NCBI GenBank assembly: GCA_951406725.2 | Contig: OX597825.1 | Location: forward strand, 51,708,001-51,772,000 | Origin: Octopus vulgaris | Taxonomy: Eukaryota | Length of the DNA stretch: 64,000 bases | Reading direction: 5' to 3' | Shown: positions 1 to 63,895 of the stretch, in pieces | How the letters are laid out: each line of letters begins with the position of its first letter | Position numbering within the stretch: the first letter of the stretch is position 1 | Notes under the pieces: model-generated | Database searches by the model: none | What the model was told of the DNA's origin: nothing | The model's input: the letters and a program-made list of their open reading frames with translations, nothing else | Program-made: the position numbers and the translations under genes

Positions 1-188
1 AACAAAAACACCAGGACTTACAAACACATATAACATACAGAAAATTGCACTACTAGGCACTGCACACATCCTACGCAGAACACTTTCCATACAATAACCA
101 TCAGAGCATCACAACAAATCACAGCACATACCCAAGGCACAAGAGCTGCGCTCGGTAGTGAAGTGAAAGCACGCAAAAAATAAAACTA

Positions 189-193
<5 letters not shown>
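1..193 (+). mobile_element. R4/Dong-like RLE non-LTR retrotransposon, 3' end (young family)
   Basis: Positions 2-97 translate to TKTPGLTNTYNIQKIALLGTAHILRRTLSIQ*, the C-terminus of the RLE domain. The 3' UTR ends AACTACTGAA and runs into (TAA)n. Near-identical to 62405-62580. Confidence 0.85.
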
Positions 194-14980: not shown

Positions 14981-15585
14981 TACTTTAAGCACGAGGCCCG
15001 AAATTTTGGTGGAGGGGGCCAGTCGATTAGGTCAAACCCAGTACGCAACTGCTACTTAATTTATCAATCCCGAAATGATGAAAGGCAAAGTCGACCTCGG
15101 CGGGATTTGAAATTAGAAATTAAAGGCAGACGAAATACCGCTAAGCATTCGCCCGGCATGCTAACGTTTCTTATTTCTTTACAGCCCACAAGGGGCCACA
15201 CGCAGAGGGGACAAAGAAGAACACACACACGGATTAAGTCGATTATATCGAACCCAGTGCGTAACTGGTACTTATATAATCGACCCCGAAAGGATGAAAG
15301 CAAAGTCGACCTCGGCGGAATTTGAACTCAGAACGTAGCGGCAGACGAAATACCTATTTCTTTACTACCCACGAGGGGCTAAACACATAGGGAACAAACA
15401 AGGACACACACACGGATTAAGCCGATTATATCGACCCCAGTGCGTAACTGGTACTTATATAATCGACCCCGAAAGGATGAAAGCAAAGTCGACCTCGGCG
15501 GAATATGAACTCAGAACGTAACGGCAGACGAAATCCGACTACGCATTTCGCCCGACGTGCTAACGTTTCTGCCAGCTCGCCGCCT
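14981..15585 (-). mobile_element. Three tandem or nested SINE family B units
   Basis: GATGAAAG(G)CAAAGTCGACCTCGGCGG occurs three times. Units span about 14981-15170, 15171-15353 and 15354-15585. Only the last has a complete head. Confidence 0.85.
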
Positions 15586-27574: not shown

Positions 27575-28352
27575 ATATATACATACTTGTGTGCGTGTGT
27601 GTATGTATGAGTAAGTACATACACATATATGTTTGTGTGAGTATGTGCATGTACGCATACATGTTTGTGTGTGTACGTAAGACCTCTTGAACGCAGGAGG
27701 TATATATCTATGTATTGTGAAAATATGGATGCGTGTATTTTTATCTGTTTTCTTTTTTGTATATATATATATATATTTACTCTTGTACTCTTTTACTCTT
27801 TTACTTGTTTCAGTCATTTGACTGCGGCCATGCTGGAACACCGCCTTTAGTCGAGCAAATCGACTTATTCTATCGGTCTCTTTTGCCGAACCGCTATGTG
27901 ACGGGGAAGTAAACACACCAGCATCGGTTGTCAAGCAATGCTAGGGGGACAAACAAACATATACACACAGACTTATATATATATACATATATACGACAGG
28001 CTTCTTTCAGTTTCCGTCTACCAAATCCACTCACAAGGCATTGGTCGGCCCGGAACTATAGCAGAAGACATTTGCCCAAGATGCCACGCAGTGGGACTGA
28101 ACCCGGAACCATGTGGTTGGTTGGCAAGCTACTTACCACACAGCCACTCCTGCGCCTATATATATATATATATATACACAAAAAAGAAGACATAAAAATA
28201 CACGCATCCATATTTTCACAATACATAGATATATACCTCCTGCGTTCAAGAGGTCTAACGTCCACACACAAACATGTATGCGTATATGCACATACTCACA
28301 CACACAAACATATATGTGTATGTACGTACATGCACACACGCACACAAGTATG

Positions 28353-28401
<49 letters not shown>

Positions 28402-28406
28402 ATATA

Positions 28407-28444
<38 letters not shown>

Positions 28445-28810
28445 CAAAAAAGAAAACAGATAAAAAATACACGCATCCATATTTTCACAATACATAGATA
28501 TATACCTCCTGCGTTCAAGTGGTCTTACGTACACACACAAATATGTATGCGTATATGCACATACACACAAACATATATGTGTATGTACGTACTCATACAT
28601 ACACACACGCAAACAAGTATGTATATATGTATGTGTGTGTGTATTTGTACGCAACCTCATCCTCATCTACACATATTTGTTTGTGTGCGTGTAAGTACAT
28701 GTACATATACATTTTTGTGAGGGTGTACTTATGTAAATGTTGTGAACGCAGGAGGTTTATGTCGATATATTGTGAGAATATGGTTGCGTGTATTTTTTAA
28801 ATCTTTTTCA
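27575..28810. repeat. Four copies (+,-,-,+) of a ~180 bp local unit
   Basis: TGAACGCAGGAGGTATATATCTATGTATTGTGAAAATATGGATGCGTGTATTTT is forward at ~27688, inverted at ~28195 and ~28465, and forward but diverged at ~28743. Confidence 0.85.
27778..28156 (-). mobile_element. tRNA-derived SINE family A, near full length
   Basis: Very similar to 11184-11816, with a small internal deletion. Inserted in (TA)n. Confidence 0.9.
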
Positions 28811-44569: not shown

Positions 44570-45850
44570 ATTGATACTAGTTAAATAAGTAAATATATAA
44601 TTTTTAGTTTAGTATACTTTAAATGGACTCTAAATGAGCAAACAAAAATAGACTAGAAAAACAAAAACATATTAGTGACAGAATTTAGGATGTACCACCC
44701 CAAATCTGACATAGAAAGGTTATATATTCAACAAAATGATGGTGATAGAGACCTTATATAAATAGCAAGCTACTGCAAAATAACCAGCATAGGACTACAG
44801 AAATACCTAATTCAGAAGCAAAGAAAACTGATACAAATAGCCTCAAAACACGAGCCAAAACAGAAAACCGTTTTCTATCTTTGAGGAAGCTGAAACAAAT
44901 ACAAGAATGAAGTCATAGTACCTGCTAGCTATAAATAAAAAGAGGAAACAGCGAAAGCCGTAAAACAACTAAAATCCAAACTAAAACTGGAGCAACAATG
45001 TCTCACGATAAAACGATGGCAAGAAAAGCCCTTACGTGGTAAATATTGGGATGAGTTGAACAGAAAATATATCGATACAGTAAAATCCCAACAATGGCTG
45101 AAAAGCTGGGTACTCAAAGCAGAGACTGATGATCTTTTTCTTTGCAGCAGAAAATCAAAGACTCCCAACCAAAAAATCACCAGAAACGCATAATGAAGAA
45201 ATACAAGTAACTGCAGAATATGTGGTATTGGGGAAGAAACAAGAAATCATATCATCTCTTGCTTCCCAGTCCTACCTAAGGAGAAATTTATCCACAGACA
45301 TGACAGAGTTAGGATCTATATATGCTGGAAATTATGCCAACACTATGGAATGTCAACAGAAGAAAGATGGTACTGTCACACACCAGAAAAGGTCTCAGAA
45401 AATGACAAAGCAACCGTATTCTGGGATATGCCAATATACACAGATAGAGAAATCAAGGATAATAGACCGGATGTAGTTGTTAGACATCAGTAAGACAAAT
45501 ATATTTTTTAATTGATGTATCATTACCAACAGATGACTATGTATCTTTAAAAGAAAAGGAGCAACTCTCAAAATATAAAGATCTGAAAATAGAAGTAACC
45601 TGAATGTGGAGCCTAAAAGTATTTAAAAATCATTGACAAATACATAACCAAAATATCAGGACTTACGAATGTATATAACATACAGAAAATAGCACTACTA
45701 GGCACCGCACACATCCTACGTAAAAGAATACAATGAAAATAAGAACACCACAACAAACCCCATCATATATACAAAGCACACAGAGCCGTGCTCGGTAGTG
45801 CAGTGAAAGTACCTGATAAAAGTAAAACAACTGAACAGTAATAGTAATAA
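44570..45850 (+). mobile_element. R4/Dong-like retrotransposon, 5'-truncated, intermediate age
   Basis: Motifs KWTLNE, YHPKSDIERLY, KPLRGKYW, SQQWL, RHDRV, FWDMPIYTDREIKDNRPDVVV, IDVSLP, SKYKDL and IQKIALLGTAHILRK. The 3' UTR is homologous to 98-193. Decayed TAA tail. Confidence 0.9.
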
Positions 45851-59366: not shown

Positions 59367-60704
59367 ATATACGCAACAACAATCAGTTGTGAAGCATATT
59401 GTTCTGCAATTTTCCAGTACCTTTCGATACGTGACCCTTTAGTTTACTGACGGGATAAGACAGGTATGGAAAGGTTTTAATTCCCTTGATCTGATGGATG
59501 CACTATAGATTCTGAAAGAACTGACGTTTGTAAATATCAATGGTTAAAATCATGGAAAAGCTTATATACCTTTTTATATACTAATGATTTGTAGAGGCAA
59601 AATACAATAGCACCTCACTCCAAATATTAGGGTATTAAAAATTCTGGATCTGACCATATAACGCAATTACCTTCCCCACTCACCTTCACTATCAACATAA
59701 GGACATCCTAATGTCCAAATACTTGGTGACAAAGAAAGAATGTACAATAACTATTCCAACATAATGACACATAATGTTTTTTAAACCATACTAAAAACTC
59801 AGTATAAATGCAAACACGATGTAACGAGCTTTCAGAAGGTAAATAAAAGGCCGAGTACATTACCCCACACCCCACATGCTAAAATATCCTGTAGCAATTT
59901 TTAAAAATCGCTAGGCTAATTTCTATCCAAACTTAAATGTAAATTAAGCAAACACTTTAAATGTGATTTCGAAGTATATCGCAAACACATTCTCGACACA
60001 GTTGTACTTTGAAATAGAAGGAATGGAACTGCAGTGCAGACATTTAATCAGATATTTCTACTCTCCCTCACCTACTGAGAATCTTACTGGACCCCAGGAG
60101 AAGATTTATCGCAATTAACAAACCATGACAGGTTCATAATGCATACTAGGGCGATTCCTATTGGGTCAAAATGAGTGTGTTTCCTTATATCTATACGGAC
60201 TATAACGGAACTGAAGAATTCAGTCTCGGAAGAAAGTTCATCACTGATAACCTTAGAATGCGTACTACTCCTCATAGCTCTGCCTGTATTCTTTGATTGG
60301 ATATAGAGAGGGTTGATATCTTTGCTGAATCATACAACATGAATGACCAAGCGTCTCACAGACATTATAGAAAAGAATTAATATTTATACTCAAGATATT
60401 TCTTTTATATATATCCACTAGCACCACATTGATAATATATAGCATTTTACATAAAACATTAGATTTAAACACAAGTAAACATTGCGGTTGCAGACGATAG
60501 TGTTTGCAAAAGCAGCAAGTAAGGGTGATGGCAACTACGATATTATCTGATCCAGAGTTTTGTAAAATTAATACAATGGGGATAGGAGATCTTATCGTTG
60601 TAGCCACATAATGAAGCCATCAAAAGAAAGGCTCAGAACTTGACAACTCTGTTGCCATTTTGAAGCGCAGCGTACATGGATATCATATTGTTATAATCTG
60701 TTAG

Positions 60705-60851
60705 TATTTACATTATTTACATTTGACGGATATTTGTCCTTATCTTCTTTGTTGTTAAAACAACGTTTCGGCTGATGTACCCTCCAGCCTTCGTCAGGTG
60801 TCTTGGGAAATTTCAAACCTGGGTTCTCATCCCTAAGGTATTTTTCGATGC

Positions 60852-60852
<1 letters not shown>
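60705..60852 (-). mobile_element. HHR-containing 3' arm of a tRNA-headed element (left copy)
   Basis: Reverse complement of 62741-62885. Confidence 0.8.
60757..60802 (-). ncRNA. Minimal type I hammerhead ribozyme
   Basis: Minus strand: GACAC CTGACGA A GGCTG GAGGGTACAT CAGCC GAAAC GTT GTTTT. The core is intact, stem II is a perfect 5 bp, stem III is palindromic ACGT and stem I pairs at 4/5. Confidence 0.75.
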
Positions 60853-60930
<78 letters not shown>

Positions 60931-60955
60931 ATTATTATTATTATAGTTATTATTA

Positions 60956-62198
60956 TTCAGTAGTTTTAGTTTTATTTTTATAGCGTGCTTTCATTTCACT
61001 ACCGAGTGCAGATCTGTGTGCCTTGGGTATGTGTTGTGTTTTGCTGTGATGTTCTTATGGTTACTGTGTTGAAAGTGTTTTGCGTAGGATGTGTGCAGTA
61101 CCTAGTAGTGCAATTTTCTGAATGTTATATATATTTGTAAGTTCTGGTGTTTTTGTTATGTATTTGTCTGAATATTTTTTTATCATACTTAATGCGCCTA
61201 CTATGATAGGAATTGTTTCTGTTTTTAGATTCCACATTCGAGTTACCTCTATTTCCAGGTCTTTGTATTTTGAAAGTTTCTCCATTTCTTTTAGAGACAC
61301 GTTGTCAGATGCTGGTATTGATTGATACATAAATTAGAAAGCTTTTTCCTCTTGATGAACTCTGACAACTATATCTGGCCTATTGGCCGTAATTTCTCTA
61401 TCTCTGTGTATTGGCATATCCCAGAGTATGGTTGCTTTCTCGTTTTCTGTGACCTTTTATGGCCTGTGCCTATACCATCACTTTTCTGTTGTTATTCCAT
61501 AGTGTTGGCATAGATTCCTGTGTATGTAGGTCCCAACTCTGTCGTGTCTGTGAATATATTCCTTTTTAGCCATGGCTGGGCAGCCAGAGATGATATGAAT
61601 TATTGATTGTTGTCCATCCACATATTCTGCAGTTACTTGTTATGTTTGTTTTCATTACATGTTTTTGGTAATTTCTGGTGAGTAGGCTTTGCTCTTGTGC
61701 TGCAATTAAAAATCCTTCAGCCTCTGCTTTGAATCCTGAGCTTCTCCACCATTGCTGGGATTTTTCTGTCTATTTCGTTTGCATTTAGTTTAGCCCGGTA
61801 ATTGCCATGAAGGGGCTTTTCTTGCCTTCGTTTTATCATGGTCCGTTGCTAATCTAGTTTTAGTTTGGATTTCATTTGTTTTATAGCTTTTGTTGTGTTT
61901 TCTTCTTCTTCTTCTTCTTCTTCTTCTTCTTCTTCTTCTTCTTCTTCTTCTTCTTCTTCTTCATATTTGTTATGTAGTATGATTTCTTGTTCGTATTTGT
62001 CAGCTTCCTTAAATACTGAGAGCAAATTTTTGTTTTGCTCGTGTTTTGTGGCTATTTATATTAGTTTTCCTTGCTTCTGAAATAGGTATTTTTGCAGTCC
62101 TATGGTAGTTGATTTATAATAGTTTTCCAGCTGTATAAGGCCTCTACCACCTCCTATACGTTGTATATATAGCCTTTCTATGTCAGATTTTGGGTGGT

Positions 62199-62199
<1 letters not shown>
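60956..62199 (-). mobile_element. R4/Dong-like retrotransposon, 5'-truncated, with (TAA)n on both sides
   Basis: Minus strand: HHPKSDIERLYIQRIGGGRGL, KPLHG, AEGFLIAAQEQ, CRICG, HIISGCP, RHDRVG, RPDIVV, then ORF 61061-61330 EKLSKYKDLEIEVTRMWNLKTETIPIIVGAL..LGTAHILRKTLSTQ*. Confidence 0.92.
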
Positions 62200-62232
<33 letters not shown>

Positions 62233-62255
62233 CATTATTATTATTATTATTATTT

Positions 62256-62319
62256 TTCAGGTCACTGCCTGGAATCGAACTCGGAATCAAGGGTTAGTAC
62301 CCCGCTCTCTTGACCTGAA
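62256..62319 (-). mobile_element. tRNA-like head fragment at the centre of the inverted pair
   Basis: Minus strand: AAGAGAGCG GGG TACTAA CCC TTGATTCC GAGTTCGATTCC AGGCAG TGACCTGAA (anticodon-like arm plus B box). Bounded by inverted TTCAGGTCA and TGACCTGAA. Confidence 0.65.
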
Positions 62320-62342
62320 TGATAATAGTAATAATAATAATG

Positions 62343-62404
<62 letters not shown>

Positions 62405-62408
<4 letters not shown>

Positions 62409-62575
62409 CACATATAACATACAGAAAATTGCACTACTAGGCACTGCACACATCCTACGCAGAACACTTTCCATACAATAACCATCAGAGCATCACAACA
62501 AATCACAGCACATACCCAAGGCACACAGAGCTGCGCTCGGTAGTGAAGTGAAAGCACGCTATAAAAATAAAACTA

Positions 62576-62580
<5 letters not shown>
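62405..62580 (+). mobile_element. R4/Dong-like retrotransposon, extreme 5' truncation (176 bp), inside (TAA)n
   Basis: Differs from 22-193 by only about two small indels. Confidence 0.9.
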
Positions 62581-62645
<65 letters not shown>

Positions 62646-62646
62646 A

Positions 62647-62733
<87 letters not shown>

Positions 62734-62740
62734 TAATAAT

Positions 62741-62920
62741 AGCATCGAAAACTAACTTCGGAATGAGAACCCAGGTTCGAAATTTCCCAAGACACCTGAC
62801 AAAGTCTGGAGGGTATATCAGCCAAAACGTGTTAACAACAAACAAGATGAGGACAAATATCCGTCAAATGTCAACAATGTAAAAACTGTACATAATTCCT
62901 CATCTCTTCAATATAGAACT
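62741..62920 (+). mobile_element. HHR-containing 3' arm of a tRNA-headed element (right copy, core mutated)
   Basis: AGCATCGAAA..GAGAACCCAGGTTCGAAATTTCCCAA GACAC CTGACAA AGTCTG GAGGGTATAT CAGCC AAAAC GTGTT AACAACAAAC..ACAAATATCCGTCAAATGT. Confidence 0.8.
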
Positions 62921-63895
62921 GTGTTAGGATTTGTTTCGATACAAATTTGGCTCCCATGTATAGTACAAGGTTCAAGGACTGCTGAGAGGCTTCTTTGATT
63001 ACTGGTAATTACGATTTCGTTATCAGTTCCATTGTGAAGGTTGTCTTTGAACGTTATGGAGGGAGGTGATTCGGAAGGATGTTTACTGTGGATACTTCTG
63101 ATAACCAAAATAATTTCCTAAAGACGTTACAATTCTCAAAACTTCACTACAAACAAAAGGAGAGAAAATATATATCCGATACAGTTCTCTATGATCTCTG
63201 CCACAACAAAATAGGAGCCGTCAGGGATTCCAAAAATGGTAAATATAGATTGTCTGTTAATTTATGCAGGAAAACTTTTTTCAGTATTTAGTTTAATTGT
63301 ATTCTATGTCTATAGAGTCTTAAAATAATAGTTCTTGATTTCTAAAGATGCAAAATTATGTAAATTTCAGCACTTTGCGAATTTTACATTTTGGTGTAGA
63401 ATTACAGCTAATAAGACCCCGTGATACATGAAAAAATGATTCTAAAATTGTTCTTATATTGCTCATTTTAAAAGTATTTTGTGTGGCAAATCTTTTGTCT
63501 GCTCTCGGTTTCTTTGAATGTTTAATTTTGACGAAGAATGTTAACGAGAAAGCTAATTTACATCAATTAGAAAGCTGCTTGCTTTATTGAATAGGAAAAA
63601 GATAATGATAATTGAGTACTGTTAAGTCAACTGGTGGTTTAGAAATAAACAAAGATAAAGAATAATTACAAGTAATAATAATATATAAAATCTCTGACGA
63701 CAATTTCACTTAAATTACATTGTTTTATCTGAAGTCTATCTTGTAGAAGCTCTCTTCTGAAAGTGTTTTACTTTAAAACTGAATCATCTCACAATTTATT
63801 TTAGGAAATATGTGGAAATATGTATATCTATTACTGGATATTGCAAAACATTTAAAGTAAATTTATTTCAGTTATAATATAATATTGAGTGTATA

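Follow-up and report, generated by a model that had tools for sequence, protein, structure and literature searches.

Near one end of the analysed window, a 64,000-nt stretch of the Octopus vulgaris genome (assembly GCA_951406725.2, contig OX597825.1, positions 51,708,001 to 51,772,000), two inverted arms are joined head to head (Table 1). Each arm leads from a tRNA-like head, of which the plus arm keeps only the last 9 bases, through a (TAA)n tract into a tail with a hammerhead motif, and each tract is interrupted by a Dong-like LINE fragment. The initial annotation of this DNA had described a symmetric inverted structure that emerges once the two insertions are removed; both arms and both insertions were located, and all parts lie at or within a few bases of where it had placed them. 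The two tails, which it had called the same, are 88% alike (pairwise alignment, E 4e-50). The end that it gave for the plus-arm tail was set too early; this tail exceeds its counterpart by about 35 bp. The tRNA-like head with its B box was likewise recovered, although in the window it is 5'-truncated, begins at family position +17 and has lost the A box (family alignment). A 6-bp direct repeat brackets the whole pair; when flanks are mismatched, 17% of the combinations also share a match of 6 bp. Neither tail nor head is a product of chance: the genome contains 3758 exact copies of a 30-mer from the tail and 793 of one from the head, but none of the reversed control sequences. The locus is likely a single insertion of two 5'-truncated pseudo-LTR arms to which the Dong-like LINEs were added later. 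Elsewhere in the window, 15172-15534 and 28157-28642 are tandem repeats of 183 and 269 bp, with two copies each.

Table 1. Features of the inverted pair and its flanks; positions are those of the window.
Feature	Position	Strand	Basis or remark
Candidate target-site duplication, left copy, 6 bp	60699..60704	+	flank comparison
Pseudo-LTR tail, short end, at the earlier of the two end points seen in the family	60705..60850	-	tail-versus-tail alignment, family 30-mers
Minimal type I hammerhead motif, core intact, one stem I mismatch	60757..60802	-	predicted cut between 60762 and 60761
Candidate start codon inside minus-arm tail	60830	-	family comparison
(TAA)n, downstream part, minus arm	60852..60957	-	repeat search
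5'-truncated Dong-like LINE in (TAA)n, 1242 bp, not part of the PLE	60958..62199	-	alignment
(TAA)n, upstream part, minus arm	62200..62255	-	
tRNA-like head, family positions +17 to +77, A box lost	62256..62315	-	family alignment, similarity to own tRNAs
B box	62271..62282	-	motif match
5-bp overlap, arms joined head to head	62311..62315	.	sequence inspection
Last 9 bases of head, start of plus arm	62311..62319	+	
(TAA)n, upstream part, plus arm	62318..62406	+	
Dong-like LINE 3' end, 172 bp, inserted in (TAA)n	62407..62578	+	alignment
(TAA)n, downstream part, plus arm	62579..62741	+	
Pseudo-LTR tail, long end, with ~35-bp optional extension (about 62887-62921)	62743..62921	+	alignment
Decayed hammerhead motif: two core substitutions, 3-bp deletion, stem I intact	62791..62833	+	family comparison
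Candidate target-site duplication, right copy, 6 bp	62922..62927	+	flank comparison

Copies elsewhere in the genome reveal the element to which the arms belong. One of the first 30 tail loci has coding sequence immediately upstream of the head, which was used as the next query. In 29 of 30 loci picked by DNA (the query locus counted) the end of the ORF is followed, after a 38-nt spacer, by the head, and the same succession is found in all 20 loci picked with a piece of a lizard Penelope-like element (PLE) protein (20 of 150 matches), the shortest of which reaches 8 nt into the head. The tail directly precedes the ORF start in 24 of 30 loci. The order is ORF (RT, then a putative endonuclease-like C-terminus), 38-nt spacer, tRNA-like head, (TAA)n, and tail with hammerhead. 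On these counts the head-(TAA)n-tail composite is almost certainly the pseudo-LTR of an autonomous PLE. From domain order and homology, the element is provisionally placed with the EN+ (Penelope/Poseidon-type) PLEs. A search for an autonomous PLE sharing the tail, suggested in the initial annotation, was thus successful. Its view of the composite as a separate non-autonomous element is not supported: the composite is the pseudo-LTR, the tail is in frame with the ORF, and sequence variants, including both head variants, are common to short and ORF-linked copies, in small numbers.

The single ORF contains an RT domain (RVT_1, E 1.2e-9), and 148 homologs have the same Pfam set. Towards its end it aligns over 266 aa with the C-terminus of an Anolis PLE-type protein (29% identity, E 3e-27), which may not be PAc. 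The Pfam GIY-YIG model found no match on the element's own copy and in homolog P0008 one of E 0.23 only, and a PDB sequence search returned weak RT matches only. An ATG in the tail opens a frame that crosses the ribozyme and continues into the ORF, P0008 aligns along the same stretch, and the in-frame length is found in 32 of 42 copies with a readable C-run. A small intron (GT...AG, last ~45 nt of the tail, in frame from a second ATG) was considered and set aside as less likely: the alignment of P0008 stays in frame across the region, the length of its repeat unit differs by 9 nt between copies, and among the RNA read joints listed (all but 8) none skips it. A second PLE family was sought in the same genome as a host-matched control, and all 20 matches examined belong to the present one. 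Several ORF-start copies (L194, L201, L205, L206, L211 and L219; about 1880-2100) break ~400-450 nt in and resume in the pseudo-LTR, and these breaks resemble recurrent internal deletions or template jumps. The near-identical pairs L306/L307 and L053/L054, each on one contig and with common rearrangements, are probably segmental duplicates.

We take the window insertions, by eye and from their motifs, to be Dong-like; a family profile search of them gave no match. TAA lies on both sides of either insertion. The 172-bp insertion is 98% identical to window 23-191 and 91% to the 1242-bp one, and two further Dong-like copies, a young one (1-191, 98% to the 172-bp insertion) and an old one (44694-45833, 71%), lie in the window. 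The 3' end of the Dong-like insertion (62570-62579) and the end of the head (62256-62264) both close in CTGAA right before (TAA)n. According to the sections of PMC7998251 available, Dong LINEs target (TAA)n. Dong-like insertions lie in or beside the (TAA)n of the family at loci L002, L034, L038, L127 and L267. As they recur there, the PLE carries target sites for another retrotransposon.

The integration signature can be read from the inverted pairs. An inverted arm within reach was found at 97 distinct loci among 190, and the initial annotation's question of how often copies are inverted is answered by 52 of 90 head-selected loci (within 400 nt) and 47 of 70 tail-selected ones. In 84 of the 97 pairs one end is long and the other short, while 11 have two short ends and 2 have two long ones (Fisher p 2e-14). 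Flanks share a word of at least 8 bp in 52 of 99 pairs, compared with 1.7% of crossed pairs, and anchored target duplications, with a mode of 12 bp, are present in 66 of 96 pairs and absent from 30. Owing to these duplications and the asymmetry of the ends, each inverted pair is likely the result of one event in which a cDNA was primed on each strand. A test of whether both arms derive from the same template gave 6/7, 6/6 and 9/15 concordant cases and was not significant. The optional 30-40 bp tail at one end and the inverted 5'-truncated arm, as in EN+ PLEs, are both present, and the predominance of pairs with unequal ends is in line with the PLE-type integration proposed earlier for the window. 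In PLEs, a tail at one end only and an inverted arm have been described in qualitative terms (excerpts of PMC8557442); comparable counts of end asymmetry or duplications in PLEs were not found in the literature listing that we scanned. Inverted or single copies dominate the mapped loci and direct repeats are occasional, by impression rather than by formal count.

The hammerhead motif follows a pattern known from PLEs, whose anatomy and minimal hammerheads are described in the available text of PMC4209133. The majority sequence has the minimal type I features listed there: the core CUGANGA/GAAA/UH, an extra base before stem II, a G-C closing pair and a palindromic stem III. The core is intact in 35 of 60 copies, and the losses are concentrated at CpG, as neutral decay would give. 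Among relatives (70 of 80 related PLE loci on metagenome contigs, 10 short or duplicate ones being left out), 26 similar minimal hammerheads occur in 25 of the 70 loci, with stem II different yet paired. The conserved minimal type I hammerhead postulated for the family is thus borne out by majority sequence and copies. In the window itself (60802-60757) the core is as intact as had been claimed, but stem I departs from the family majority by one C.U mismatch; the plus-arm motif was correctly described as mutated in its core with stem I kept. The Rfam hammerhead model, proposed as a check, did not match the motif, which rests on inspection and family comparison. Folding of the monomer could not be distinguished from that of shuffles (z -1.2), and cofolding of two motifs did not yield the catalytic dimer; neither is a measure of activity. 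The sequence of the copies continues for 55-90 nt beyond the predicted cut, which means that the template RNAs had not been cleaved there. The hammerhead is an ordinary PLE minimal motif and is predicted to be weak and to depend on a dimer or on protein. Ribozyme-driven cap-independent translation has been reported for RNA viruses (PMC13725137, in part); by analogy it may offer a lead for the present PLE, and no more.

What sets the family apart is its head. A full head measures about 75 nt; its A and B boxes agree with the consensus and are spaced as in a tRNA, but the stems of the cloverleaf are disrupted. Compared with 27 of the genome's own tRNA sequences, which cover 6 amino acids, it comes nearest to tRNA-Arg, closely followed by tRNA-Ala. 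ARAGORN (default and relaxed) and Rfam do not call it a tRNA, and its identification rests on motifs and family comparison. The linkage of head and tail supposed from the window is found in 76 of 90 head-selected loci, with the tail within 1.4 kb. In 45 related PLE loci with enough downstream sequence, A plus B boxes after the ORF were sought and not found. Possibly the PLE acquired head and (TAA)n together, in the form of a tRNA retrocopy mobilised by Dong. The head as a free Dong-mobilised SINE was rejected, as the 14 of 90 heads without a tail in 1.4 kb show, by eye, no (TAA)n upstream.

The 5' ends of the copies pile up at the start of this head. In the head-selected set (90 loci taken by position, from 91 of the first 100 listed among 793 exact matches), 69 ends lie within -10..+8 of the head start and the other 21 are spread further upstream, which corresponds to densities of 0.03-0.06 per nt at the head start and 0.002-0.01 upstream. 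The tail-selected set (70 loci drawn from 100 listed of 3758 matches; two arm pairs share a locus) contains 19 copies that end in the tail, 12 that end in (TAA)n or without a detectable head, and 39 that reach the head; 17 of 23 copies reaching +8 stop by -10 (0.041 per nt versus 0.002-0.011 elsewhere). The pile persists where an inverted arm is missing (24/29). The Pol III-driven element of the initial annotation finds agreement here, in that both sets of ends lie at a position fitting a Pol III start. Ends of this kind could also arise if the head were cut like a pre-tRNA, by RNase P, inside a longer PLE transcript, which would leave RNA 5' ends at +1. Exactly there lie 10 of 90 ends, but the largest class (14/90) lies 7 nt upstream, the acceptor and T stems are unpaired, and neither ARAGORN nor Rfam recognises the head; we regard such processing as very improbable.

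A further explanation sees in the short copies ordinary 5'-truncated PLE debris, transcribed by Pol II, with the head an inert old SINE or tRNA insertion at which cDNAs stop through palindrome fold-back or a chance Pol II start. A 12-bp palindrome is indeed centred 1-2 nt before the head, several copies carry its centre in the opposite orientation, nothing unusual is seen in the RNA reads, and PLE promoters described so far lie in the pseudo-LTR and are treated as LINE-like (excerpts of PMC2377424 and PMC8557442). Yet eleven comparable palindromes occur along the element, and the 21 ends that lie further upstream than -10 are scattered. Part of the pile, at +1..+8, falls beyond the edge of the palindrome; the A and B boxes match the consensus although the cloverleaf is disrupted, and T4 is depleted against relatives. 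Weighing these points, we consider debris of this kind unlikely. The 2-nt centre is inverted in L080, L089, L113, L117, L121, L125 and L131, in some without a longer inverted arm; the inverted centres suggest a short fold-back of the cDNA end.

The sense strand of the element is depleted of T runs. TTTT is absent from the 2725 nt of the sense-strand majority sequence and occurs at 0-1.25 per kb (median 0.55) in 11 single copies, as against 0.43-6.7 per kb (median 3.2) in 31 T-matched relatives, which are neither host-matched nor independent. Shuffles lack it with P0 0.0035 (mononucleotide), 0.06 (dinucleotide) and 0.033 (codon), and taken alone against the latter two the absence is weak evidence. 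GGGG is likewise absent from the majority sequence, and a few head-less relatives are T4-poor too. RNA reads of a related organism (three runs, about 6% of each, and the contigs of one further run) cover both strands at equal depth, with the ORF below about 25 and the tail at about 3000; a pile of read starts or ends, including at the hammerhead site, was not found in its fragmented libraries. This pattern is compatible with passive read-through transcription and is silent on Pol III and on cleavage.

A Pol III start at the head is favoured by the pile of 5' ends, by A and B boxes that are absent in relatives and by the scarcity of TTTT. It is disfavoured because the RNA reads lack a start pile and show low ORF depth, because the pile coincides with the 12-bp palindrome, so that fold-back could contribute, and because only 2 of 7 upstream pseudo-LTRs clearly begin at the head start. 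On balance, and judging from sequence, we lean towards the tRNA-derived head as a captured Pol III promoter in the pseudo-LTR and towards the short copies as by-products of internal RT initiation.

Under this preferred mechanism, Pol III would start about 7 to 0 nt before the head of the upstream pseudo-LTR and would read on into the ORF strand, which is almost TTTT-free; such an RNA would need cap-independent translation. The PLE protein, probably a dimer, would cut the two DNA strands about 12 bp apart, and one cDNA would be primed per strand, each from one of two internal start sites ~35 nt apart and placed near the pseudo-LTR/ORF junction. Internal RT initiation has been demonstrated in vitro for the anole element (excerpts of PMC11167929). 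A cDNA from the 5' junction would copy only tail, (TAA)n and head before the RNA ends, and the first ~300 nt of the RNA would become short SINE-like copies ending at the start site, while ORF-bearing copies would require tandem or longer templates. Such templates exist, as several upstream pseudo-LTRs extend past the head (at least 3 of the 7 in which a head was found). The two cDNA ends would join by a few bases of microhomology into a head-to-head pair, whose (TAA)n Dong-like LINEs would enter later.

Copy numbers bear on the fate of the short copies. Exact 30-mers of the spacer (558) and of an RT segment (128) are fewer than those of tail and head. Corrected by sample match rates, of which the head rate rests on 8/135, the counts translate, with wide error, into ~33,000 tails, 13,000 heads, 1,800 spacers and 300 RT segments. 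On the best reading, SINE-like by-product copies number roughly ten thousand. Alternatively, the short head-(TAA)n-tail copies might propagate themselves and form a lineage of their own, with Pol III producing their RNA and the PLE protein copying it in trans. This alternative is compatible with the preferred reading and differs from it in the loci that serve as sources. Their 5' ends at the head start, the roughly sevenfold excess of heads over spacer-bearing copies, the retention of both boxes in full heads and the precedent of Sm-alpha, a Pol III SINE-like repeat with a hammerhead (PMC6765202 and PMC2770079, as far as their available sections go), would suit such a lineage. It is at odds with the whole composite being the pseudo-LTR of the autonomous element and with both head variants occurring in short and ORF-linked copies alike (small numbers). 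Moreover, short copies stop at the RT start sites, while the anole protein requires a template that extends to position +172 of the ORF (PMC11167929, in part); by analogy, solo short copies may be dead on arrival. We judge a self-propagating lineage to be quite unlikely. All structural tests that were applied identify the family as a PLE; it behaves like a SINE, but the comparison of variants did not set its short copies apart as a separate lineage. More tentative than the captured promoter, and on the whole doubtful, is the full extension of the preferred reading: an autonomous PLE that Pol III transcribes over its full length from the tRNA promoter it has captured, with T-run terminators eliminated from a 2.7-kb coding strand that is translated uncapped, and that sheds SINE-like copies and stands between PLEs and Sm-alpha-like ribozyme SINEs.

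Comparisons with known systems are drawn here from the available sections of the papers cited. With Penelope/Poseidon-type PLEs, such as anole PAc (PMC11167929) and Drosophila virilis Penelope (PMC2377424), the octopus element has in common a single ORF with an RT and a putative endonuclease-like C-terminus, a pseudo-LTR, a minimal hammerhead overlapping the ORF start and inverted 5'-truncated arms. In the anole element the ribozyme likewise overlaps the ORF start, and two internal RT start sites define the optional tail (PMC11167929). These sites are ~35 nt apart in PAc and here, where they follow the candidate start codon at distances of about 121 and 156 nt; the first is at 111-118 in PAc. 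Unlike in PAc and Penelope, the octopus pseudo-LTR contains an A/B-box unit and (TAA)n, which those sections of PMC11167929 and PMC2377424 do not mention; most octopus copies begin at the tRNA-derived unit and the sense strand is nearly TTTT-free.

Sm-alpha and Sj-alpha resemble the octopus family as very abundant short repeats in which a tRNA-related unit, in their case a Pol III promoter, is followed by a type I hammerhead (PMC6765202, PMC2770079). Sm-alpha, however, is described as tandem, SINE-like and without an ORF, whereas the octopus copies are scattered, for the most part singly or in inverted pairs, and the unit belongs to an autonomous element. Non-LTR retrozymes are also short hammerhead repeats from PLE pseudo-LTRs (PMC7229834, bioRxiv 10.64898/2026.07.22.740005), but are described as tandem units with a ribozyme in each, while inverted pairs dominate here; a term search of the available text of both papers for a tRNA-derived promoter gave none. 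The TRIMp3 elements (Cassandra, Helenus, Ajax) have a small-RNA-derived Pol III promoter in the terminal repeat, with a proposed origin by SINE insertion. They are non-autonomous LTR elements whose autonomous partners are expected to rely on Pol II (PMC10886601), in contrast to the octopus unit, which resides in an autonomous non-LTR-type element. The octopus SINEs OR1, OR2 and OK, by their description, likewise have tRNA-derived heads, and OR1 and OR2 are listed as CORE-SINEs (PMC4824008, PMC4758252). Neither a tRNA-derived or Pol III promoter in any PLE nor the present family in octopus was found in searches of the open-access literature, mostly of listings. The 2026 octopus repeat annotation gives class totals only in its available text (PMC13282606), and a prior annotation of the family in Dfam, Repbase or the Zenodo library of PMC13282606 is possible.

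Little is known about the promoters of PLEs and about how these elements integrate. Whatever the promoter, the family provides an in vivo signature of two-ended integration, with a stagger of ~12 bp and, in 84 of 97 pairs, a different RT start site on either strand; in the existing in vitro PLE system the strands showed no start-site difference. Tens of thousands of copies are prone to be mislabelled as SINEs, and their (TAA)n tracts serve as landing sites for Dong-like LINEs. If the head is a working Pol III promoter, a retrotransposon would have swapped its polymerase by capturing a tRNA-derived piece, which would open a route from PLEs to ribozyme-bearing SINE-like repeats such as Sm-alpha.
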